A DNA stretch of 64,000 bases from Bacteroidaceae bacterium (GTDB lineage: Bacteria; Bacteroidota; Bacteroidia; Bacteroidales; Bacteroidaceae), in assembly GCA_017938245.1 (NCBI GenBank), contig JAGBBX010000024.1, positions 47,050 to 111,049 on the forward strand. Direction: 5' to 3'. Shown here piece after piece: positions 17,584 to 45,192 of the stretch (the stretch's first letter is position 1; every line of letters begins with the position of its first letter). Under the pieces are notes generated by a model. That model searched no databases, was not told the DNA's origin, and saw only the letters and a list, made by a program, of their open reading frames with translations. The position numbers and the translations under genes were made by a program.

Positions 17584-20500
17584 CTATGCTACTTCGGCTA
17601 TCGCCTTGTAGGCTTCGACGCTTTGCGCTCTCTCGATTTTGCCGCGGAAGGCCAGGCGCGACCCGATATACGTGTACGAGTTCGAAGCATCGTGATACGC
17701 ATTCGCGAACGACACACCGCCATGCGAGAGCGCGGTGCTGTCGCCACGATAAACCACACGGCTAACTGACCCCGCATAGTAATACTTGTCGCAGTAGTAA
17801 GTGGTCTCACTACCAGTCAATGTTCCGACTGGTATGATGTCCATATACTTGCCGTGAGCTACAGCTGTGGTAAACTGGTCTGAACCCGTCTTCGCTTTGA
17901 CTTTGCGGGTCGTGCCGTCTGGCATTACAATATACCACTTATGATCTACTGAACCCTCATTGACTGACACATTGTCCATCATATCGTACTTGTGACCATA
18001 GATATCCTCATAGCCCAAGCAGTTCACATTGTTTATCTGCACATAGGAGCCGTTTTCCTCATACCACGCATAGGTGGTCTTGTTGTTCGGGTTGACGGTA
18101 TCCTTCATGCCCAACATTGCCGTGCCGCCTGTCTTGCGGGCATTGGTGTCCTGACCGTGACCGCACTGCGCCTGGCTGTTGCGTCTGCCATACTTGGCAA
18201 AGAACAGGTTGGCTATATCTCGGTGCATATCATAGTCTATCTGCTGCATTCCGCGTGCCTGGCTGTAATAATGGAAGTCCGTCCAGTTCATACTTGCGGC
18301 GGTCGAACCTCCCGTGATACAACTGCGGAGCTTTGTGCCTACGATAGAACTACCGAACACTGCGGTGAAGCACTCTTCGTGCTCTACCCAATCAGGCTCC
18401 ATATCTTCAATCCTGTCACTGTTAGACAGCACAACCTTGTCGAACTCAGCGGTTCGATAAACAGTGAAGTGCAATTCTGTGGCTCCTGCTGGCACATCAT
18501 ATATGAGATACATTCCGTTCTCAAACTTAACCGACAAAGATGATACGACCACATTGTCGAGGACATTACCCTCCGAGTCCGTAAAGATTGAACCCATAAG
18601 GTTTGTACCGACCACTGACGGGAAGCGGACACGCTTGAAGCCCGACACCTCCACACGGCACACGGCATAATTGCTGTCGGTCGCATAAGAGTTGGCAAGC
18701 GTTCCCTTGCCTGTCATTATCTTGTACTTGTCCTTATAGTCGCCCGCATCGGTTATATCCTGGAGTGTCAGGACTGTCGCCTCGGGCACATCGGGCATCG
18801 CCTTGTTGGTACTGTAGCAACTGTAGTTCTTGCCGTTCAGATAGTCATTGATACCTTTGAACCAGTAATGGGGCTCAAACATCATCACATCGCCCTCGCT
18901 ACCGTCAAGCATTGCAGGGGTACAGTTGGTTGTCTTCTCTGCGTCTGCATAATAGTTCGAGTTCTCATCGTGCAATGGGAAGTAGGTCATCACGCCGTCC
19001 TTGTTGTTCGCCGTAGTCTCAACCCCTGCAATGGTTATATTGCGTGTGGTCGGTTTGGTGGTAACTTTGGCAAGGCAACGGAAACGCTGCTTCAGGATGG
19101 CTTTGATATGACCGCTCGGCACGTAGTCATTGCCATAGGCACAACCCGTTTGGTTGTCGGGGTTGCTCACATTGTCATCTGCAGATACGTTCTCATCGAA
19201 CTCGATCATCGTGTACTGCGGTTGCATAATGTTCAACTCTGGGTAACGTGACTTGTACTCGGCATACACTTCATCATCAAGGTAGACGGTGAGCTGGTAT
19301 GAGCCGACAAGGGCACAAGTGTCCACAGCATTGCCGTTCGCATCGATACCGCCCAAATGCTTGTATCTCGCAAGGAAACTCTCATCGCCAGTCATATTGA
19401 CACCTGTAATACGGACACGCTTCACATTGGCACAACGGGCAAGGATATTCTCCCAATCCAGATTCGGGCACTCGGCAAAGCGGAAGGTCTCAATCGAGTC
19501 GTAACCCTCTACAAGCAAACCGCTGTTGTCGAGTTTTGGCAGATATTCCAGACGCAGGGCGGTGAGGGTTGCTGGTAACACAGCTTCACGCAACGGAGCA
19601 CCTTCAGCAAACACAACACTTTGGGCTTCTGTTCCACCTGCATTCATCACCTCGAGGCGTGTCTGGTTGGAGAAGTTCAACTCCGAAGAGGAAAGCGTGC
19701 CTGTCCTGGCATTCTTCTGACCGTTCAGATTTACCTCACGAAGTTGTCGGCACTGGTCAAGGACAGCACACCAACCCGATGCACCGCCGCCTGTCGTACT
19801 CAAGTCCAGGTACTGGAGATTGGTACACTTGTTCAGGTTCACGTCACCCGTCAGATTATCTGCCACGCCTCGCATATCAAGCCTCTTGGCTCGGCTGGCT
19901 CCATATACTCGTATCGGGTCATTGACTGTGAACGCATCGCTGAAGGTAAGCGTCACCTCCTCACCCTTCTCCGCCCTTTGGGACGGCTGTATCGATGGGG
20001 AGTTGTTGGTACCATAGCCGAAGTAATACACCTCGTTGGCGGTCACCACTATCGTATTGGCTGCCTCCGTTGCAGTACGGGCAAGGTACATATCGATGTT
20101 GTCCGAACGGTAACTGCCCGTTTCGTATTTAGCATCGAGCAGGGCATATCGGTTGCGTATGGTATGAATACGATGATGCTTACGGCTGCCGTGCAAAGCG
20201 TATATATGCGGGTACTTGGTCAGCGTTCCCTTCACATCAACGCCCTCAAGCATCGGCTTGATATACTTCCATTCGCCCGACTTGTTGTACTGGCGTGCCG
20301 ACCAGTTGCCCATCTGCTCCTCATTCAGCACCTGAAGTACTCGCTCGGGGGTCATAACCTCACGCAAAGCGGCTGCATCAGACTTCAGTTCCGCTTCAAA
20401 GTTGGCAAGGATAAGACACCAGAACATACTTGCATAGCCCTCGAAGGCGTATTTGCTCTTTTCTGCGTCCCAGGTCTCACGGTCCACATCGTACTTGTAG

Positions 20501-23500
20501 GCAAGGAAGCAGTCGTTTCGCACAAGGTAGGCGGTATCGCCATCGTAGAACAGAATATACCACACCTCGCCGTCAAAGGTTATCCAGATCATATTCTTCA
20601 CACGCTGGTCGAAGCAGGTGTTGTAGTCTGTGAACACATAGAAGGTACGCATCCAGCGCGTGTTGAAATACATCGAAGCCTCGTTCTTGAACTTCTCGCT
20701 CTTGAACGATGATATATCCTTGAAGTTGACCGTATCCGCATCGGCTGGCACACAATCACGCACCCAACGCCACAGACGCATGATAGCCTCCTTCTGGTAA
20801 CTGTTAGCCTCTTTCTCGTCCTTAGCGGTGTTGGGGTTAGACCACACAGTATCCTTTGGATAATTGAACTCCAGGGCGTTCTCAAACTCTCTGTCAAACT
20901 GCGACTCTATATCCTCGTCAACCTGGAACAAACCCAATTTCTGGGAGTTGTTCAGGAACTCAAGACTGATAACCTTGCTCTCATCGATACCTGCGACACC
21001 TTCAAAACCGACAACAGGAGCCCAGCCTGACTTGTCGTTGTTGAAGTTGTACTGACCGTGGTATGTCGGCTTCTCATCGATGGACTCTGCCGAGAACATA
21101 TCGCACGGCCAACCGTTGATGGCAGTGCGGATTGTATTGTTTATCTCCTGTGGCGGGGTGAACAGGCCTATCTCCTTGAAGCAGTCATTGAACAGCTTGG
21201 CAAGACCTGTGTTGTGTGTCATTGAACTATCCGAATAGTCACACTTCGGGTTGGCAACCTTGACAGCAGGGTCTCCAGGGACAACTGGCATTTTCAACGA
21301 ATCCTGCTTTACGCCGTTAATCCAAAGCTCAGGCTCAACACCCTTGGCAAAATAGATGCGGTAGTTCTTGCGGGCATACTTGGTTGAAGAAGTTCCCTGA
21401 ATGCGGACATATACATTCTTCAGGATGATTTCACCACCCCAAGGCGGATATATGTACACATCGGCAAGGAAGTTGGTGTCCTTGTTGTTCTCGGCATTTA
21501 TCTCATCAAGACCGCCCTTGCGGACTATCAAGATAACACCCTTGCCCTTCTTGCGGATCTTCTCAATATCGATACCGAGACCTTCATCATCCAGCACGTC
21601 ATTCTTGTCTGCAAGGTCTGCCATCTCCTCCGCCGTAGGACGGTCTACGATATGGTTGCCTAACTCATCATCATCGGATATGGCTTCGTTATATATACGC
21701 ACAATGCGGACTTCAACATCGGCAAAACTGCTGTCAATGGTAATGCCTTGTGGGGTGTCCTGGAGGAAGTTGTCGGCTTCAGCGTAGATGTCCGCCTTGC
21801 TTCGCTCTCCATCGATATAGAGCTCCATCAGCCTGCCGTCAGCACGCTTGCCCACTACAAACGCCACCTTCAGCCACTCCTCTGAAGCGAACTCCATGCC
21901 GACACCGACATTGGTGACAACTTCGTTGCCGTCCTCATCGGTCACGGTCTTTGTCGAGCCTGTGTACATCGAGGCCTTCTCCGCAGTAATCTGGAATCCC
22001 TTTGGTCCAGACATACAGGTAACGACATCGCCCTCGCGGTCAACCACATTGGAAACCTTAAACTCAAGTTCGATGGAGCATCCCGTAGAGGCGGCATCCG
22101 TTGCGAATGGCTTGTAATCGATATGCGCCTTTGCACCGTTACGCAAGATGAGCGACTCCCCAGTCCAACCGCTCGACTTCCAGTCCACACCTTCGAAGGT
22201 CGTTTGAACACCGTTAGAACTCCATACTGCGGGGTTCTCCTCATCATTGCTGCGACCTGCAGCATTCAGCTTCAGAACCATTCCGTAAGTGGTCTCACCG
22301 ATATTCACGCTGCTCTCCGTCACATTGATATGGAACAGGTATTCCGTTTCCCCGCACTTGAACATCATCTCGTTTGTGCCCTGGGTGGTAAAACGGTTCT
22401 TGTATGTCTGGCTGGTGCGTGCCACGCTAACGGTGGTACTCTTCACATCACCGTTGTACACATCCATCTTGGCTGGGGTGGTGTTCGGATCATAGGCTAC
22501 ATACTCAAAGGAGAGCTGTGCATACTGCCCAACCTCAAGTGTCGGGGTCAGGTGTGTGTCCGTAAAAATACGGCCATCGGCAAAACGGAGCTTCGTACCG
22601 ATGAGCGGAACGTCCGCACCGCTCTTGAAAATGTCGATGTAGATACTTTCACTCTTCAGGACAAGACCAGTAGCCGCTTCCATCTCCGCCACCATCTGGA
22701 TTGTATGTCGGCCAAATGACAACCCCGTCATCGATATGCCGAAACTGCCGTTGGTGGTACCGCTTCGGGTAACGGTGGCGGTATTGTACTGCACACCGTC
22801 AAGATATACGGTAATGACCTTTGTTCCCGAACCGCTGACTGCATAGGGGATATTCACGGTGTCATAAACTCCATAACCACCGTTCGCAATGGAGTTGGCG
22901 AGATTGTAGGAACTTGTCAGGGAGAGGGCAACAACTTTCACCGACACATAACTCTGCTTGGTCTGTGTCTTACCCGTTCCAGGATCTATCGTGGTGGCGC
23001 GGACATAAATGTCTGTGGTACCTACCTGCAGGTATTTGGAGAGGTCAAGCGTATAAGTACCTTTGCTCACATCCTGAATGGTATTGCTGTATATGGTCGA
23101 TGAGCCATACTTCATCGACACCTCTATGGTAGCCTTCTGTCCTGTGGTCACGCCTTTGTCATCGCCACTGCTATACTGGTGGTCATAGGTATAGGAAAGC
23201 TTAGAGTTGCCTCCCTGCTTGATAATGGTGTTATCTACGGAAGCATTCAGCACAATCTTCGTGGTACTCGCATCACCGCTGCCACCGCCACTACCTGCAG
23301 GAATATCGACAGCCGCAATCTCAGCACCGCTCTTGTTGGTAAGGGCAAGGCGGACACTGCTCTCGTCATCGTTGACCTCGGCGCTCATGCCGAATACCGT
23401 ATTGGCTTCAATCTCGTTCAACTTACCTGTTACGGCAGAGTTCTGCACGGGGTTGGTGCTGTTCGCATCGAGCGTCTCATCGACCTCCACCTCGTTGATG

Positions 23501-24450
23501 GTGATGTTGACATTGCCCGTTGCGTCTGGATTCTGAACCGTCCCATTTACGGTGACAGTCTTTATGGTACCAGCACCTCCGAAATCCTCCCAGCTTGCTT
23601 CCGCATCCCAACTGCCAATGTCGGTACCGACAAACTGCTTGGTCTCCCACTTGCCCTGTGACACCTCATAGGTTATGGTGCGACCCTTGGCACGCATCTT
23701 CTCCTCCACAACTACAATGGCGGTGGCAAGGGTGTAGAATCCGTTCGCAAGCGGATATGCCTCAGTGACATTGATTGTGTTACCGCCACCGCTGCCGCTA
23801 AACTCGACAATAGTACCCTCTTCGGAGTTCCATACATAACCGACCGCCCCGAACAAATAGATTTTATCCTTGTGAATCACGGTGTGGGCATCGTCACTGA
23901 AGAACTGGGTTGCCTTATCCCAGAACACATAGTATCCTCCACTACAGAGAGCGGCAAAGACGTTCAGGGCTTTAACAAAAACAACGCTCTCGGCCGAAGC
24001 TGGCGCCTCACCGTCAATAATGGTCGCATCATCAACGAAACCGTCAAATCTTACTGTTGCCCCTTTCAGGGCTGCCAATGCCGTTGACTCGTGGGTCGCA
24101 ACGACCTGGAATGCCTCTTCTGTTGCTGAGCGGGCATCACTTGTCGCCCGTTCTGCCTCGAGGGCTGCCTGCCCTGCATTATCCGCCGCCTCATTTGCTG
24201 ATTGCGCTGCAGTCTCGGCTGTGGTTGCCGCCGTAGTCGCCTTTGTCGCTGCCGCATTAGCCGTTTTTGCTGCATCTTCAGCTGGTTTGCGCAACAAGGA
24301 CACAGGCGCACTTACAACCTCCTCGCCACGCATTGCGGGAAGACTGTTTATGCCGTCCAGGCTATCCACAACTGGAAGCTCGTCAACACTCTGCGATTCC
24401 GCCTTGATGGCGTTAATCAATTCCTGTTTTTCTGCATTCGTCAGTGCCAT
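17584..24450 (-). CDS. Giant tail fibre/receptor-binding protein; DGR target
   Basis: 2288 aa. Regions by residue: Ala-rich coiled N-terminus, Ig-like repeats, LamG-like (about 720-925), CotH-like (about 1000-1345), LRR-like (about 1525-1700), C-type-lectin/FGE-like C-terminus carrying the VR (about 2229-2269). Confidence 0.9.
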   Translation of the reverse strand: MALTNAEKQELINAIKAESQSVDELPVVDSLDGINSLPAMRGEEVVSAPVSLLRKPAEDAAKTANAAATKATTAATTAETAAQSANEAADNAGQAALEAERATSDARSATEEAFQVVATHESTALAALKGATVRFDGFVDDATIIDGEAPASAESVVFVKALNVFAALCSGGYYVFWDKATQFFSDDAHTVIHKDKIYLFGAVGYVWNSEEGTIVEFSGSGGGNTINVTEAYPLANGFYTLATAIVVVEEKMRAKGRTITYEVSQGKWETKQFVGTDIGSWDAEASWEDFGGAGTIKTVTVNGTVQNPDATGNVNITINEVEVDETLDANSTNPVQNSAVTGKLNEIEANTVFGMSAEVNDDESSVRLALTNKSGAEIAAVDIPAGSGGGSGDASTTKIVLNASVDNTIIKQGGNSKLSYTYDHQYSSGDDKGVTTGQKATIEVSMKYGSSTIYSNTIQDVSKGTYTLDLSKYLQVGTTDIYVRATTIDPGTGKTQTKQSYVSVKVVALSLTSSYNLANSIANGGYGVYDTVNIPYAVSGSGTKVITVYLDGVQYNTATVTRSGTTNGSFGISMTGLSFGRHTIQMVAEMEAATGLVLKSESIYIDIFKSGADVPLIGTKLRFADGRIFTDTHLTPTLEVGQYAQLSFEYVAYDPNTTPAKMDVYNGDVKSTTVSVARTSQTYKNRFTTQGTNEMMFKCGETEYLFHINVTESSVNIGETTYGMVLKLNAAGRSNDEENPAVWSSNGVQTTFEGVDWKSSGWTGESLILRNGAKAHIDYKPFATDAASTGCSIELEFKVSNVVDREGDVVTCMSGPKGFQITAEKASMYTGSTKTVTDEDGNEVVTNVGVGMEFASEEWLKVAFVVGKRADGRLMELYIDGERSKADIYAEADNFLQDTPQGITIDSSFADVEVRIVRIYNEAISDDDELGNHIVDRPTAEEMADLADKNDVLDDEGLGIDIEKIRKKGKGVILIVRKGGLDEINAENNKDTNFLADVYIYPPWGGEIILKNVYVRIQGTSSTKYARKNYRIYFAKGVEPELWINGVKQDSLKMPVVPGDPAVKVANPKCDYSDSSMTHNTGLAKLFNDCFKEIGLFTPPQEINNTIRTAINGWPCDMFSAESIDEKPTYHGQYNFNNDKSGWAPVVGFEGVAGIDESKVISLEFLNNSQKLGLFQVDEDIESQFDREFENALEFNYPKDTVWSNPNTAKDEKEANSYQKEAIMRLWRWVRDCVPADADTVNFKDISSFKSEKFKNEASMYFNTRWMRTFYVFTDYNTCFDQRVKNMIWITFDGEVWYILFYDGDTAYLVRNDCFLAYKYDVDRETWDAEKSKYAFEGYASMFWCLILANFEAELKSDAAALREVMTPERVLQVLNEEQMGNWSARQYNKSGEWKYIKPMLEGVDVKGTLTKYPHIYALHGSRKHHRIHTIRNRYALLDAKYETGSYRSDNIDMYLARTATEAANTIVVTANEVYYFGYGTNNSPSIQPSQRAEKGEEVTLTFSDAFTVNDPIRVYGASRAKRLDMRGVADNLTGDVNLNKCTNLQYLDLSTTGGGASGWCAVLDQCRQLREVNLNGQKNARTGTLSSSELNFSNQTRLEVMNAGGTEAQSVVFAEGAPLREAVLPATLTALRLEYLPKLDNSGLLVEGYDSIETFRFAECPNLDWENILARCANVKRVRITGVNMTGDESFLARYKHLGGIDANGNAVDTCALVGSYQLTVYLDDEVYAEYKSRYPELNIMQPQYTMIEFDENVSADDNVSNPDNQTGCAYGNDYVPSGHIKAILKQRFRCLAKVTTKPTTRNITIAGVETTANNKDGVMTYFPLHDENSNYYADAEKTTNCTPAMLDGSEGDVMMFEPHYWFKGINDYLNGKNYSCYSTNKAMPDVPEATVLTLQDITDAGDYKDKYKIMTGKGTLANSYATDSNYAVCRVEVSGFKRVRFPSVVGTNLMGSIFTDSEGNVLDNVVVSSLSVKFENGMYLIYDVPAGATELHFTVYRTAEFDKVVLSNSDRIEDMEPDWVEHEECFTAVFGSSIVGTKLRSCITGGSTAASMNWTDFHYYSQARGMQQIDYDMHRDIANLFFAKYGRRNSQAQCGHGQDTNARKTGGTAMLGMKDTVNPNNKTTYAWYEENGSYVQINNVNCLGYEDIYGHKYDMMDNVSVNEGSVDHKWYIVMPDGTTRKVKAKTGSDQFTTAVAHGKYMDIIPVGTLTGSETTYYCDKYYYAGSVSRVVYRGDSTALSHGGVSFANAYHDASNSYTYIGSRLAFRGKIERAQSVEAYKAIAEVA
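17644..17766 (-). repeat. DGR variable repeat (VR)
   Basis: The reverse complement aligns to 43073-43195. The 113-nt core (17651-17763) has 11 mismatches, all at TR adenines. It encodes ...SRVVYRGDSTALSHGGVSFANAYHDASNSYTYIGSRLAFRG. Confidence 0.92.
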
Positions 24451-41280: not shown

Positions 41281-42669
41281 GTGGGGCTGCACCAAAGGTA
41301 TGCAACACTGCTTGAGGGGCAACCGCTTGACTTTATCGCTGGGCGTAAGGAGGAAGAGGAGAAGATACGCACCCAACTGTCGGAGCTCTTTGACGGGATG
41401 ATGCAAACGCTGTTCCGTCAGCAGGGGGCTCACCTCGACATAGAGGTTCTGGAGACTCCCAAAATGCAGGAGTTCATAGAAGCACACGCTTCGGTGCTTG
41501 ACTCGTCTTTCAAGAAGGTGAAGATGTCCGACCTTATGCGCCGTAGGCTCACACGCTCAAACTATATCTTCTCGGGAATGAAGACCTTCCACGAGCTGAA
41601 CGAGGCGTTCCCCTCCCTGCTCGACGAGGACGGCAGCCGAAAACCGTTCGAACGCTTTTTGAACGATGTTCGAAAGATAGACGAGAAGTACAACGGCAAC
41701 TATCTGCGTGCGGAGTACAACTTCGTGGTCTCCTCGGCTGAAATGGCTGCCCGCTGGGAGGGCTTTATGGAAGACGGGGACCGTTACCACCTCCAGTACA
41801 GAACTGCCAACGACGGCAAGGTACGCCCCGAACACGCCGCGATGCACGGGATAACGCTCCCGCCTTCAGACTCGTTCTGGGAGGAGTTCTACCCACCCAA
41901 CGGCTGGAACTGCCGATGCACGGTCATACAGGTACGCAAGTCAAAGCACCCTGCAACTGACCACGAGGAGGCTATGGCACTCGGGGAACTCGCCACAGGC
42001 AGGGACTCCAAAGGCATCTTCCGTTTCAATCCTGGCAAAGAGGGAAAGAGCGTGCCCGACTACAACCCCTACACGATACGCAAGTGCAAGAGCTGCGACA
42101 TCGCCAAGGGTAAACTGAATACCGCAAAGCCGTTCATTCCAGAGAATGAGATGTGTGCTGCGTGCAAGCTCATCAGGGCACAGTTGGAGGACAACATCGG
42201 AGCATCAAGACGAATAGTCAGATACAACGAGGAGGAATGGGAAAGAACTTATATCTCCCCTAATGACAACGGGCTTGTCGCCACACAGTGGGAGCGCATC
42301 GCCGAATCGGAGGCAAGCAACTCCGAGCGTCAGAAGTTCGTCAAGGAGATGCGCATGTGCAAGGTGTTGGCCGACAACGGGCACGATGTGGAATATCTGC
42401 AGGGAGTAAACCGCCCAGCTGGTCAGACATACGACATCCGTATGGACGGCATAAAAGCCGACTTGAAGTGTATTACTGGCGGTGCTGGCAATATAGTCAA
42501 GTACATAAAAAAGGCCTTGACGAAGCAAGGCGGTGAAGCGGTTATTCTGGAACTTCCGAATAGTCCTGGTGTAGAGTTCTACGAGGCATTGGCTGAAGCA
42601 AGAAGAAAATGCAGAGGCCGTATTTTATTCTACATTCATGATGACAATGTCCTGAAAGAGGTAAAATAA
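41281..42669 (+). CDS. MuF/SPP1 gp7-like head morphogenesis protein with an extra C-terminal domain
   Basis: MuF core ...RPEHAAMHGITLP...NGWNCRCTV. The C-terminal roughly 110-160 aa carry an E...D-x9-DLK pattern. The start is GTG and uncertain. Confidence 0.85.
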   Translation: MGLHQRYATLLEGQPLDFIAGRKEEEEKIRTQLSELFDGMMQTLFRQQGAHLDIEVLETPKMQEFIEAHASVLDSSFKKVKMSDLMRRRLTRSNYIFSGMKTFHELNEAFPSLLDEDGSRKPFERFLNDVRKIDEKYNGNYLRAEYNFVVSSAEMAARWEGFMEDGDRYHLQYRTANDGKVRPEHAAMHGITLPPSDSFWEEFYPPNGWNCRCTVIQVRKSKHPATDHEEAMALGELATGRDSKGIFRFNPGKEGKSVPDYNPYTIRKCKSCDIAKGKLNTAKPFIPENEMCAACKLIRAQLEDNIGASRRIVRYNEEEWERTYISPNDNGLVATQWERIAESEASNSERQKFVKEMRMCKVLADNGHDVEYLQGVNRPAGQTYDIRMDGIKADLKCITGGAGNIVKYIKKALTKQGGEAVILELPNSPGVEFYEALAEARRKCRGRILFYIHDDNVLKEVK

Positions 42670-42777: not shown

Positions 42778-43011
42778 ATGAACAAAATTATTTCATTTCT
42801 GAAAGAAAGCAACCGCTACAAACACCTTATCGGAGGCTTCTTTGTAGGGTTGCTTGCCTTGACACCCTGGACCGCTATTTATGCGGCTGCAGTAGCTGCT
42901 TCTTGCCTTGAACTCAAGGACAAGCTCAAAGGCTGCTACTGGGACTGGCTTGACTGGATCCTGACTGTTGTCGGCGGTGGAATTGCTGCCATTATTTGGT
43001 TGTTCCTGTAG
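42778..43011 (+). CDS. Small two-TM membrane protein
   Basis: 77 aa with hydrophobic segments LIGGFFVGLLAL...AAAVAASCL and ILTVVGGGIAAIIWLFL. Confidence 0.6.
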   Translation: MNKIISFLKESNRYKHLIGGFFVGLLALTPWTAIYAAAVAASCLELKDKLKGCYWDWLDWILTVVGGGIAAIIWLFL

Positions 43012-43072: not shown

Positions 43073-43195
43073 ATAAGCCGTGTGGTTTATCGTGGCAACA
43101 ACAACGCGAACTCGAATGGCGGTGTGTCGTACGCGAATGCGAATAACGATGCTTCGAACTCGAACACGAATATCGGGTCGCGCCTGGCAAACAAC
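43073..43195 (+). repeat. DGR template repeat (TR)
   Basis: Adenine-rich copy of the VR. In the VR frame it reads SRVVYRGNNNANSNGGVSYANANNDASNSNTNIGSRLANN (AAC-rich). It lies about 190 nt upstream of the RT start. Confidence 0.92.
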
Positions 43196-43386
43196 CAAAG
43201 TATTTATATCGGCGTACAACACCGAGGATGTATCCTCACCGTCGTGCCGAGGGGAGCAAGCCACAGCAACAGCAGTCACAGACTGGAAAGCTGAAAAATT
43301 AAACGGACGGGTAGAGTTTGGTAGGTCCTGACGGATTCGAAGAACTTGGACCCAAGGAAGGAAGGCAACAGCCTCAAACTAACAGT

Positions 43387-44688
43387 ATGCGAAGAGAAGG
43401 TTACATCATCAAGGAGATTGTGGACTACTCCAATATGGCGGAGTCGTTCAACCAGGTACTCCGTGGCAAAAAGCGGAAACGCTGCCGCCAGGGGCGTTAT
43501 CTTCTTGCGCATCGGGAGGAGGTCATTCAGGAACTGACCAACCAGATTGCCGACGGCTCATTCAAAGTGAGCGGATATCGGGAGAGGGAGATTGTGGAGG
43601 GTGGCAAGCTCCGCCGTATTCAGGTTCTCTCTATGAAAGACCGTATCGCCGTTCACGCCATAATGGCAGTGGTCGACAGGCACCTGAAGAAGCGGTTCAT
43701 ACGCACGACCTCCGCAAGTATCGAGGGACGGGGAATGCACGACCTGATGAAGTACATTCGCCGTGACTTACAAGAAGACCCCGAAGGAACACAGTACTGC
43801 TACAAGTTCGACATCTCAAAGTTCTATGAGAATGTGAAGCAGGACTTCGTTATGTACTGCGTCCGCAGGGTGTTCAAGGACAAGACGCTCATCAACCTGC
43901 TCGACGGGTTTGTCCGAATGATGCCTGACGGTATCAGTATCGGGCTCCGCTCATCACAGGGACTGGGCAACCTCTTATTGTCTGTCTATTTAGACCATTA
44001 TCTGAAGGACAGGTACGGAGTCCGTCATTTCTACCGCTATTGTGATGACGGGGTCGTACTCGGTAACGCGAAATCGGAACTGTGGGAGATTCGTGATGCC
44101 GTCCACGAACAGCTGGAGCAAATCGACCTCAAGGTGAAAGCCAACGAGCGTGTGTTCCCAGTGGACGAGGGCATTGACTTCCTGGGATATGTCATCTATC
44201 CCGACCATGTGCGACTACGCAAGCGCATTAAGCAGAAGTTCGCCCGAAAGATGCACGAGGTAAAAAGTAGAAAAAGGCGGCGTGTTTTGATAGCAAGCTT
44301 CTACGGAATGGCAAAGCACGCCAACTGTATAATGTTGTTTAATAAATTAACAGGCAAAGAAATGAAATCATTTAAGGATTTGAATGTCGCTTACAAGCCC
44401 GAAGACGGCAAGAAGCGATTTGCGGGTGCGGTGGTAAGCATCCGCGAGTTGGTGAACCTGCCCATCGTAGTAAAAGACTTCGAGACTGGAGTGAAGACCA
44501 GCCAGGGCGAAGACCGCTGTGTCGTTGCCATCGAGGTGAACGGTGAGCAGAAGAAGTTCTTCACCAATTCAGAGGAGATGAAGAACATCCTCCAACAAGT
44601 GAGTGAAATGCCCGATGGCTTCCCCTTCGAAACCACCATCAAGTCGGAGACCTTCGGCAAAGGTAGAACAAAGTACGTCTTCACTTAG
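43387..44688 (+). CDS. DGR reverse transcriptase with a roughly 110-aa C-terminal extension
   Basis: 433 aa from MRREGY. It has the DGR-type motif SIGLRSSQ and catalytic YCDD. Residues about 321-433 extend beyond the expected thumb. Confidence 0.92.
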   Translation: MRREGYIIKEIVDYSNMAESFNQVLRGKKRKRCRQGRYLLAHREEVIQELTNQIADGSFKVSGYREREIVEGGKLRRIQVLSMKDRIAVHAIMAVVDRHLKKRFIRTTSASIEGRGMHDLMKYIRRDLQEDPEGTQYCYKFDISKFYENVKQDFVMYCVRRVFKDKTLINLLDGFVRMMPDGISIGLRSSQGLGNLLLSVYLDHYLKDRYGVRHFYRYCDDGVVLGNAKSELWEIRDAVHEQLEQIDLKVKANERVFPVDEGIDFLGYVIYPDHVRLRKRIKQKFARKMHEVKSRKRRRVLIASFYGMAKHANCIMLFNKLTGKEMKSFKDLNVAYKPEDGKKRFAGAVVSIRELVNLPIVVKDFETGVKTSQGEDRCVVAIEVNGEQKKFFTNSEEMKNILQQVSEMPDGFPFETTIKSETFGKGRTKYVFT

Positions 44689-44709: not shown

Positions 44710-45192
44710 ATGAGAAGAATTGAAGGCTCTGCAGGGGTCAAACTGATAGAATGTACACACCCTGCAAAAAACAGATGGCATATCCGTTGGGATGTGCAGG
44801 AGAACGAGGACGGCTCGGCTACCTACATGGAGGAGGAGTTCAACCACCGACCTACTGAAGACGAGATAAAGAAGACCGTTGTCGACTGGATCAACGCCCA
44901 GACGGACGAGGCTATATTGTCAGGCTTCGAGTGGAACGGCATGCGTGTATGGTTGTCTGGAGAGAACCAGTTCAACTATAAGGCAGCGCACGACCTCGCA
45001 CACCAAATGCCTGAAGCAGCCCTGCCTGTAAAGTTCAAGTTCGGCACGGACGATGAACCTTGCTATCACACATTCCAGACCGTGGAAGAACTGACGGACT
45101 TCTATGTGCAATCAATCAAGTATATTCAGGGGAAACTGGATATCGGTTGGGACAAAAAGGACGCTTTCAGTTTGGACTCATACCGAGTGTAG
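44710..45192 (+). CDS. DUF4376-like protein (fibre-assembly-associated domain?)
   Basis: 160-aa ORF directly after the RT. The assignment is tentative, from sequence character only. Confidence 0.55.
   Translation: MRRIEGSAGVKLIECTHPAKNRWHIRWDVQENEDGSATYMEEEFNHRPTEDEIKKTVVDWINAQTDEAILSGFEWNGMRVWLSGENQFNYKAAHDLAHQMPEAALPVKFKFGTDDEPCYHTFQTVEELTDFYVQSIKYIQGKLDIGWDKKDAFSLDSYRV

Follow-up and report, generated by a model that had tools for sequence, protein, structure and literature searches.

How does a diversity-generating retroelement (DGR) carry out mutagenic reverse transcription when no gene for the accessory protein Avd is detectable in it? The question is an acknowledged one (Wu et al. 2018, PMC5758913), and it is raised by a DGR located on contig JAGBBX010000024.1 of the Bacteroidaceae bacterium assembly GCA_017938245.1. 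The whole stretch of DNA analysed, hereafter called the window, measures 64 kb and carries a Mu-like prophage (approximately from 17.5 to 57 kb) related to Bacteroides Hankyphage p00. The reverse transcriptase (RT) of this DGR consists of a normal DGR RT of ~320 amino acids (aa), followed by an autonomous domain of 108 aa. This domain belongs to an unnamed family that tracks the RTs of an Avd-less lineage, where it occurs fused to the RT or is specified by a gene for a ~105-aa protein overlapping the RT stop codon. Judging from sequence comparisons and a structural model, we propose that the element is a Hankyphage-type DGR of the Avd-less lineage, in which the RT-fused domain, predicted to be OB-like (oligonucleotide/oligosaccharide-binding), would act as an accessory subunit, i.e., as an analogue and not a homologue of Avd. 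We give this reading a probability of about 0.6; the domain is, as such, a concrete candidate for a factor in Avd-independent mutagenic reverse transcription.

The template repeat (TR), the structured RNA in the spacer downstream of it and the RT gene make up a single plus-strand unit, with the following parts.

43076–43188, plus strand: TR core, found by an adenine-tolerant scan and by alignment to the variable repeat (VR); it matches the annotated TR of p00.
43073–43195, plus strand: TR over the extended run in which mismatches occur at adenines only.
43207–43354, plus strand: structured RNA RT-3 (Rfam RF03068) in the TR–RT spacer, found with cmscan.
43387–44361, plus strand: core of the DGR RT, residues 1–325, from fingers to thumb (Pfam RVT_1, alignment with a solved phage RT, motifs).
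44362–44688, plus strand: C-terminal domain, residues 326–433, with the stop codon (phrog_19665, AlphaFold2, BFVD).

The RT open reading frame (ORF) extends from an ATG at 43387 to the stop codon at 44686–44688 and specifies 433 aa. There is an in-frame TTG at 43318, an unlikely start codon as it sits inside the structured spacer RNA, and the ATG was therefore taken as the start. The Pfam RVT_1 domain spans residues 72–270. The closest solved structure, the Bordetella phage DGR RT (bRT; PDB 8ub7, 328 aa), aligns to residues 3–319 only (E 8e-23), and the sequences ISIGLRSSQ and YCDD pair with IPIGSLTSQ and YMDD of bRT; the protein thus has both the motif-4 signature [ILV]GxxxSQ and the YxDD box by which RTs of the DGR clade were recognised. 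The last ~110 residues, from approximately residue 320 onwards, are without counterpart in bRT. A first-pass annotation of the window, made from the sequence alone, had described an RT of 433 aa from this same ATG with SIGLRSSQ and YCDD motifs, continuing in frame for ~110 aa past the thumb and ending in what looked like an independent β-rich domain; the ORF and the bRT alignment bear out the first two of these statements, and the alignment ending at residue 319 along with the structure model described below supports the third.

The domain (residues 326–433, beginning with the Met specified at 44362) was modelled alone with AlphaFold2 from an alignment of 18 sequences, giving a mean pLDDT (predicted local distance difference test) score of 85.4 and a fold of five strands and one main helix. 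DSSP assigned, in domain numbering and after a disordered linker, strands at 34–45, 51–59 and 62–68, a helix at 71–81 and strands at 89–98 and 102–107, so that the predicted order of elements, β1-β2-β3-α-β4-β5, would be that of the OB fold. In sequence searches, the domain matches phrog_19665, a PHROG family of standalone 105-aa proteins (E 2e-21), and the RT family phrog_1423 also covers the extension; searches of Pfam, NCBIfam and PDB sequences gave no match, and no protein library names the domain. In BFVD, a collection of predicted viral structures, the best match is another RT carrying the same domain (E 5e-8). The next matches are phage proteins named as single-stranded DNA (ssDNA)-binding and DUF669 proteins (E 1.6e-4 to 4e-3, TM-scores 0.5–0.56), those named as ssDNA-binding specifically having E-values of 1.6e-4 to 1e-3. 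The weak matches amongst solved structures are enriched in OB folds, namely hSSB1, RPA70N, Teb1 OB-A and MetRS-C. Because of the strand order, these weak OB matches and the ssDNA-binding neighbours in BFVD, we call the domain, with moderate confidence, OB-like and similar to single-stranded DNA-binding proteins (SSBs).

An exhaustive profile search recovered 385 cluster representatives of the domain family, which come in two architectures: the domain forms the C-terminus of proteins of 430–580 aa or it is a standalone protein of 101–113 aa. The continuous ORF for RT and domain occurs in 78 of 80 Hankyphage-like viral contigs in IMG/VR, and also in the records of p00 (RT deposited as a 434-aa protein) and BKO1-TP1; the junction Met is present in every junction variant seen. 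The rarity of the extension, implied by the first-pass annotation, did not survive the comparison with the RT architectures of these relatives, since the extension, which phrog_1423 likewise includes, is common in this RT clade and is the normal architecture of the Hankyphage-type family. Amongst the loci, identity is 85–100% for the domain and 76–100% for the RT core; the domain is more conserved than the core.

The first homologue search had returned mostly 108-aa “standalone” proteins, 80–96% identical to the extension. These database proteins are spurious as separate products because the metagenome contigs that specify them end within ~45 nt upstream of the domain Met, unlike complete contigs, which carry the fusion; the idea that the fusion is unusual, to which these entries had given rise, was rejected. 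Contig breaks cluster near the positions corresponding to 44320–44361 of the window (the contig starts of L004–L010; L008 begins with Nextera adapter sequence), and the identities of core and domain are discordant between loci (e.g., 82% versus 96%). Together, these two observations suggest a recombination junction 5′ of the domain Met, rather than a separate gene in the Hankyphage clade. A further product, P0093 (149 aa), specified by 116 contigs, joins ~65 N-terminal residues of the RT to domain residues ~25–108 by an internal deletion of the RT and presumably represents a decayed yet widespread DGR.

The split form was studied in 81 loci retrieved with standalone-type homologues from at least 401 viral contigs. 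A small ORF for the domain lies within 60 nt of the end of an RT ORF of ~330 aa in 72 of them, usually overlapping the RT stop codon; the domain gene is located 360–383 nt 3′ of the RT in six others, two carry the domain fused to the RT and one is without RT. At ten split junctions inspected, the ATG of the small ORF precedes the RT stop by at least 17 nt (e.g., ATGAAGAAGTTCTCTGA). The split loci are real DGRs: 16 of the 18 checked have a TR ~90–130 nt 5′ of the RT and one to three VRs just upstream. Programmed frameshifting between the two genes was considered and rejected, the small ORF being in the +1 frame with respect to the RT and the A-rich heptamer in the overlap not being conserved; translational coupling appears to be the simpler reading of the overlap. 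Beside the fused and the overlapping forms, there is a third arrangement in six viral loci (L085, L088–L093; e.g., L089, 5608–5997), in which an ORF of 129 aa without Pfam match intervenes between the RT and the domain gene.

Cellular genomes and metagenome-assembled genomes gave a concordant picture. Domain homologues with identities down to 28% occur in Dysgonomonas, Paludibacter, Tannerellaceae, Pedobacter, Ferruginibacter, Gillisia, Ignavibacteria and a metagenome-assembled Anaerolinea; an RT is present on the same strand at 20 of 21 domain loci, directly adjacent or fused in 18. Fused forms belong to two separate clades or more, namely the Hankyphage clade and that of L077/L083/L177/L181. 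In the genomes, the domain is thus an obligate companion of RTs of this lineage, and the alternation of fused and split forms together with independent fusions in two clades or more is a classic sign of functional partnership with the RT. The extension is also the most plausible candidate for an accessory function, as it is fused or adjacent to RTs throughout the lineage, is better conserved than the RT core and occurs in cassettes without Avd.

The absence of Avd is not exceptional in itself. Avd is found in ~74% of DGRs, so that it is not universal and about a quarter do without it; Wu et al. (2018, PMC5758913) described one RT lineage as avd-less, found no avd elsewhere in the genomes with profile searches and concluded that there must be a mechanism independent of Avd. 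The same survey reported C-terminal extensions without recognised motif in ~20% of DGR RTs. In the prophage, the RT unit has the following neighbours.

41281–42669, plus strand: MuF-like gene.
42778–43011, plus strand: ORF of 77 aa with two transmembrane segments (two-TM ORF), just 5′ of the TR (phrog_38535, E 9e-29; no Pfam match).
44710–45192, plus strand: DUF4376 gene, 160 aa, directly 3′ of the RT (Pfam DUF4376, E 2.6e-5; phrog_19239, E 2e-66).

We searched 30 proteins and protein segments of the prophage against Pfam: the RT, its extension, the products of the two-TM ORF, the DUF4376 ORF and the MuF-like gene (cut-off E ≤ 1), as well as those of 20 other small ORFs, the target protein of the DGR and its C-terminal 300 aa, thymidylate synthase, methyltransferase and Mor (cut-off E ≤ 0.1). 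No Avd family was amongst the matches. Nor was there an Avd amongst nine neighbours in two split loci or amongst the matches listed for 144 flanking ORFs of 32 dereplicated split-type loci, where one marginal match (E 0.007–0.01) could be missing from the matches listed. The first-pass annotation had seen no Avd near the RT and had named a two-TM protein and a DUF4376-like protein as its neighbours, all of which held in these searches. Its further suggestion that a neighbour might replace Avd fared less well. A two-TM homologue was detected 5′ of the RT in only 29 of the 80 Hankyphage-like loci, and we found no homologue of DUF4376, the two-TM protein or Mor with phmmer in the 81 split-type loci, which makes both neighbours poor substitutes. 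The two-TM ORF was accordingly rejected as a conserved partner and is probably not a component of the DGR.

The spacer between TR and RT matches the Rfam family RT-3 over the complete model (positions 1–148 of 148) with a score of 129.7 bits (E 4e-33; gathering score 40.5), and the p00 spacer carries the same motif (146.6 bits). RT-1 to RT-19 are motifs described near RT genes (Weinberg et al. 2017), RT-10 being the TR–RT spacer of the phage BPP-1 DGR. The split-type loci carry the related motif RT-17, which reached the gathering score in six of nine loci searched. In an alignment of 22 diverse Hankyphage-like spacers, there are 38 consensus pairs, 17 of which show compensatory changes, and 96.8% of the cells are paired, against 31–50% in slid alignments; of 500 shuffles, none did as well as the real alignment in four of the five measures and two did in the fifth. 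The spacer had been suspected of holding a functional RNA element, and the RT-3 match and the covariation agree with this. Of two hairpins put forward for this role, GAGGAtgtaTCCTC is real and corresponds to helix 3 within the RT-3 RNA. The other, GGTCC...GGACC, does lie within RT-3 and is partly paired in the Rfam consensus; it differs, however, from the helices supported by our alignment (7–10). Columns 62–104 of the spacer alignment (A8) form an interrupted stem, capped by a tetraloop, that is conserved and shows covariation; its position matches that of the stem-loop directly 3′ of the TR that was identified as the Avd-binding element by cryo-electron microscopy of the BPP-1 system (bioRxiv 10.1101/2023.10.23.563531). 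The 3′ half of RT-3 in the window (43259–43368, plus strand) also gives weak matches to RT-17 (26.5 bits) and RT-18 (23.6 bits), both below gathering score. As RT-17 is the motif of the split-type loci, the three Rfam families may be related.

In the mechanism that we propose, the domain would bind single-stranded nucleic acid, i.e., the DGR RNA and/or the nascent cDNA, the most plausible RNA contact being the conserved stem-loop directly 3′ of the TR. Such binding would allow priming and processive, adenine-mutagenic cDNA synthesis without the Avd pentamer, while the domain and the RT would be supplied one to one through their fusion or, where the genes are split, through translational coupling. 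More tentatively, the OB-like family of 105–110 aa could constitute a second class of DGR accessory proteins, unrelated to Avd, which binds the stem-loop 3′ of the TR in RT-3 and RT-17 or the nascent cDNA; we regard this generalisation as possible, albeit with considerable doubt. A number of points weigh against an accessory role for the domain. A Foldseek comparison of the domain with solved PDB structures gave nothing significant (best E 0.14, TM-scores 0.3–0.4), the BFVD targets are predictions with automatic names and the OB assignment comes from a single AlphaFold2 model built on 18 sequences. The domain is only mildly basic, with an isoelectric point (pI) of 7.8 here and 8.3 ± 1.1 in 20 standalone homologues, as compared to a pI of 9.5 for Avd (PMC5758913); being β-rich and without Pfam or NCBIfam match, it shares with Avd neither sequence, nor four-helix bundle, nor strongly basic pI. 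The mutual exclusivity of Avd and the domain was examined in domain-bearing loci only. Finally, Hankyphages offer an alternative accessory candidate in the DUF4376 gene beside the RT.

That the DUF4376 protein would be the real accessory factor, leaving the RT's C-terminal domain some other or minor role, is a reading we consider quite unlikely. Its appeal lies in position and description. The gene always adjoins the RT in Hankyphage-type phages, and the protein (160 aa, pI 4.9) fits the published description of the CH1 class by size, pI and position; Wu et al. proposed CH1 (160–169 aa, pI 4.7 ± 0.2, no motif, flanking the RT) as an accessory gene found only in avd-less DGRs (PMC5758913). The gene following the RT in a B. 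thetaiotaomicron hankyphage (GenBank PV107405.1, 40044–40529) even carries the note “Avd”, and the original Hankyphage paper had argued for Avd from the size and pI of “a small ORF” only (PMC6199706). We tried the DUF4376 protein as Avd and rejected it: its Pfam match is to DUF4376 and not to Avd, its AlphaFold2 model (pLDDT 92.6) has a mixed α/β fold instead of a four-helix bundle, with no significant PDB match and no Avd structure amongst the matches, and it is acidic where Avd is basic. By sequence and model, the gene noted as “Avd” in PV107405 is thus not Avd-like. The split-type loci keep the RT-associated domain and have, as said, no DUF4376 homologue by phmmer, while papers mentioning DUF4376 seem to be mostly about tail fibres and receptor-binding proteins of phages and about the chaperones of these. 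The linkage with the RT says little, for the gene moves in a block with the unrelated genes for Mor, thymidylate synthase (ThyA) and Dam methylase. An unlikely, though slightly less strained, role for the domain itself is that of a protein–protein adaptor, recruiting a host factor for cDNA integration or tethering the RT to a phage protein. Protein contacts are a frequent function of small β-barrels, the domain has a near-neutral pI and no solved structure significantly matches it; moreover, the route of cDNA integration is not known for any DGR (PMC12135933). Outside its own family, however, the best structural neighbours of the domain are the phage proteins named ssDNA-binding, and it co-occurs with the related spacer RNAs RT-3 and RT-17 across very different phages and hosts, for which reason the common partner is more likely RNA, cDNA or the RT itself.

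Supply of Avd in trans from the host genome would make the extension irrelevant to the need for Avd. The window shows no more than 64 kb of the genome, and other Bacteroides DGRs encode Avd-like proteins (PMC11601372); yet Hankyphage lysogenises many species with an active DGR (PMC12135933, PMC6199706), the genome-wide profile searches of Wu et al. found no avd elsewhere for avd-less DGRs (PMC5758913) and none adjoins the 32 diverse split-type cassettes, so that we hold this to be very improbable. Least credible of all is a fusion produced by an error of sequencing or assembly, or by recent read-through between two genes of this one genome. The RT–domain junction is AT-rich and looks intergenic, its other two frames contain stop codons and close homologues exist in the protein database as 108-aa products; the latter come from the broken contigs described above, and the recurrence of the same continuous ORF in p00, in BKO1-TP1 and in the 78 independent viral contigs refutes an artefactual fusion.

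The VR that pairs with the TR lies in a gene on the other strand.

17584–24450, minus strand: DGR target gene, an ORF for a tail-fibre-like protein of 2288 aa with the VR at its C-terminus.
17651–17763, minus strand: VR core, found by ungapped scan; the run with adenine-only mismatches extends to 17644–17766.

Over the 113-bp core, TR and VR differ at 11 positions and over the extended 123 bp at 18, every one of them at a TR adenine, with no other mismatch. The pair was detected by a custom ungapped scan allowing mismatches at TR adenines only; a generic repeat finder with 8-nt seeds did not recover it. The VR codes for the last ~60 residues of the 2288-aa ORF. Like the p00 target (2245 aa), this ORF is placed behind the tail genes, and the 3′ flank of the VR, CCTTCCGCGGC, is conserved with p00. 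The target has no Pfam match at E ≤ 0.01, neither over its whole length nor in its last 300 residues; a C-type lectin domain was reported for the p00 homologue (PMC6199706). DNA folding revealed no significant BPP-1-like hairpin 3′ of the VR (z = 1.3). As read from these repeats, the RT would diversify the C-terminus of the tail-fibre-like protein via a remote VR, located 25 kb from the TR on the opposite strand.

The prophage includes genes for tail proteins, terminase, portal, MuF, Mu gp36, protein S and DUF3164, while capsid, MuA and MuB were assigned by position relative to p00. The TR–RT region shares 77–78% nucleotide identity with 16 Bacteroides phage records, one of them p00, and the order of RT, DUF4376, Mor, ThyA and Dam is identical in the window and p00, with matching sizes. 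Between MuF and the early genes sits a block that runs from the two-TM ORF through TR, RT, DUF4376, Mor and ThyA to Dam. It has moved there from the right end of the phage, its place in p00, and its orientation is opposite to that of the target gene. In the 61 related contigs of IMG/VR that reach far enough upstream, MuF is 5′ of the TR in 44 and the target, as in p00, in 10. The DGR of this Mu-type prophage is a member of the known Hankyphage-type family, and the locus itself is ordinary. In the MuF-like protein, residues 385–429 weakly match a CdiA C-terminal toxin domain (PF18451; E 7e-4, under the curated cut-off), and the protein may be a MuF-fused polymorphic toxin module.

Hankyphage is amongst the most widespread gut phages. 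Since the locus is an ordinary member of this known phage family, the value of our analysis lies in annotation and in a hypothesis, not in a discovery. The length of the Hankyphage RT, its coverage by PHROG, motif-less RT extensions, the avd-less lineage and the RT-3 motif are already known. What seems to be absent, both from the literature that we could search and from protein libraries, is the recognition of the extension as a discrete family of OB-like domains, which accompanies Avd-less DGRs and occurs now fused, now as a gene of its own; a search of the literature, full text included, found no paper on an OB-like DGR accessory domain, fused or separate, tracking Avd-less DGRs. The RT extension is a conserved module, able to exist alone, that goes with this lineage of RTs throughout Bacteroidota. 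The spacer corresponds to an Rfam motif already described, and a gene noted as “Avd” in a Hankyphage record has turned out not to be Avd-like. If true, the accessory role would explain how priming and completion of mutagenic cDNA synthesis are achieved without Avd in a large lineage of Bacteroidota phages. Related hankyphage DGRs are experimentally active in culture (PMC12135933), and because a discrete domain tracks Avd-less DGRs in a system shown to be active, Avd-independent retrohoming is directly testable.

Amongst known systems, p00 itself (BK010646; Bacteroides (Phocaeicola) dorei; Benler et al. 2018, PMC6199706) is the most alike, with ~78% nucleotide identity over the region of TR, spacer and RT. 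Its 434-aa RT has the same domain (identity 77% for the RT core, 87% for the domain). Also shared are the RT-3 RNA, the genes for DUF4376, Mor, ThyA and Dam downstream, the Mu-like backbone and the C-terminal location of the VR in a target exceeding 2200 aa. The two differ in layout: in p00, target (VR), small ORF, TR, RT, DUF4376, Mor, ThyA and Dam follow each other at the right end of the genome, whereas the VR in the window is 25 kb away from the TR–RT block on the other strand, an arrangement that is common amongst the relatives.

The BPP-1 DGR (8ub7; Handa et al., bioRxiv 10.1101/2023.10.23.563531) has an RT homologous to the core over the full length of bRT, and it shares the TR followed by a structured spacer RNA, the adenine-specific mutagenesis and a target of the phage receptor-binding type. 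In contrast to BPP-1, the DGR in the window is without detectable Avd, and its RT has the additional β-rich domain of 108 aa; its spacer is RT-3 and not RT-10, and there is no significant hairpin 3′ of its VR. The domain, for its part, is comparable to phage OB-fold SSBs (BFVD entries named SSB or DUF669) in its predicted strand order β1-β2-β3-α-β4-β5 and in TM-scores of 0.5–0.56, but it has neither detectable sequence similarity (Pfam, NCBIfam, PDB) nor a significant match to a solved structure.

With the avd-less classes of Wu et al. (Architecture A/E, Lineage 3, CH1; PMC5758913), the DGR in the window has in common the lack of avd and a motif-less RT extension, and its acidic 160-aa ORF flanking the RT matches the description of CH1. 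Unlike that survey, in which the extensions were left undefined and no small ORF overlapping the RT stop figured amongst the accessory classes, our analysis brings the extension and the small ORF together as one domain family tied to the RT.

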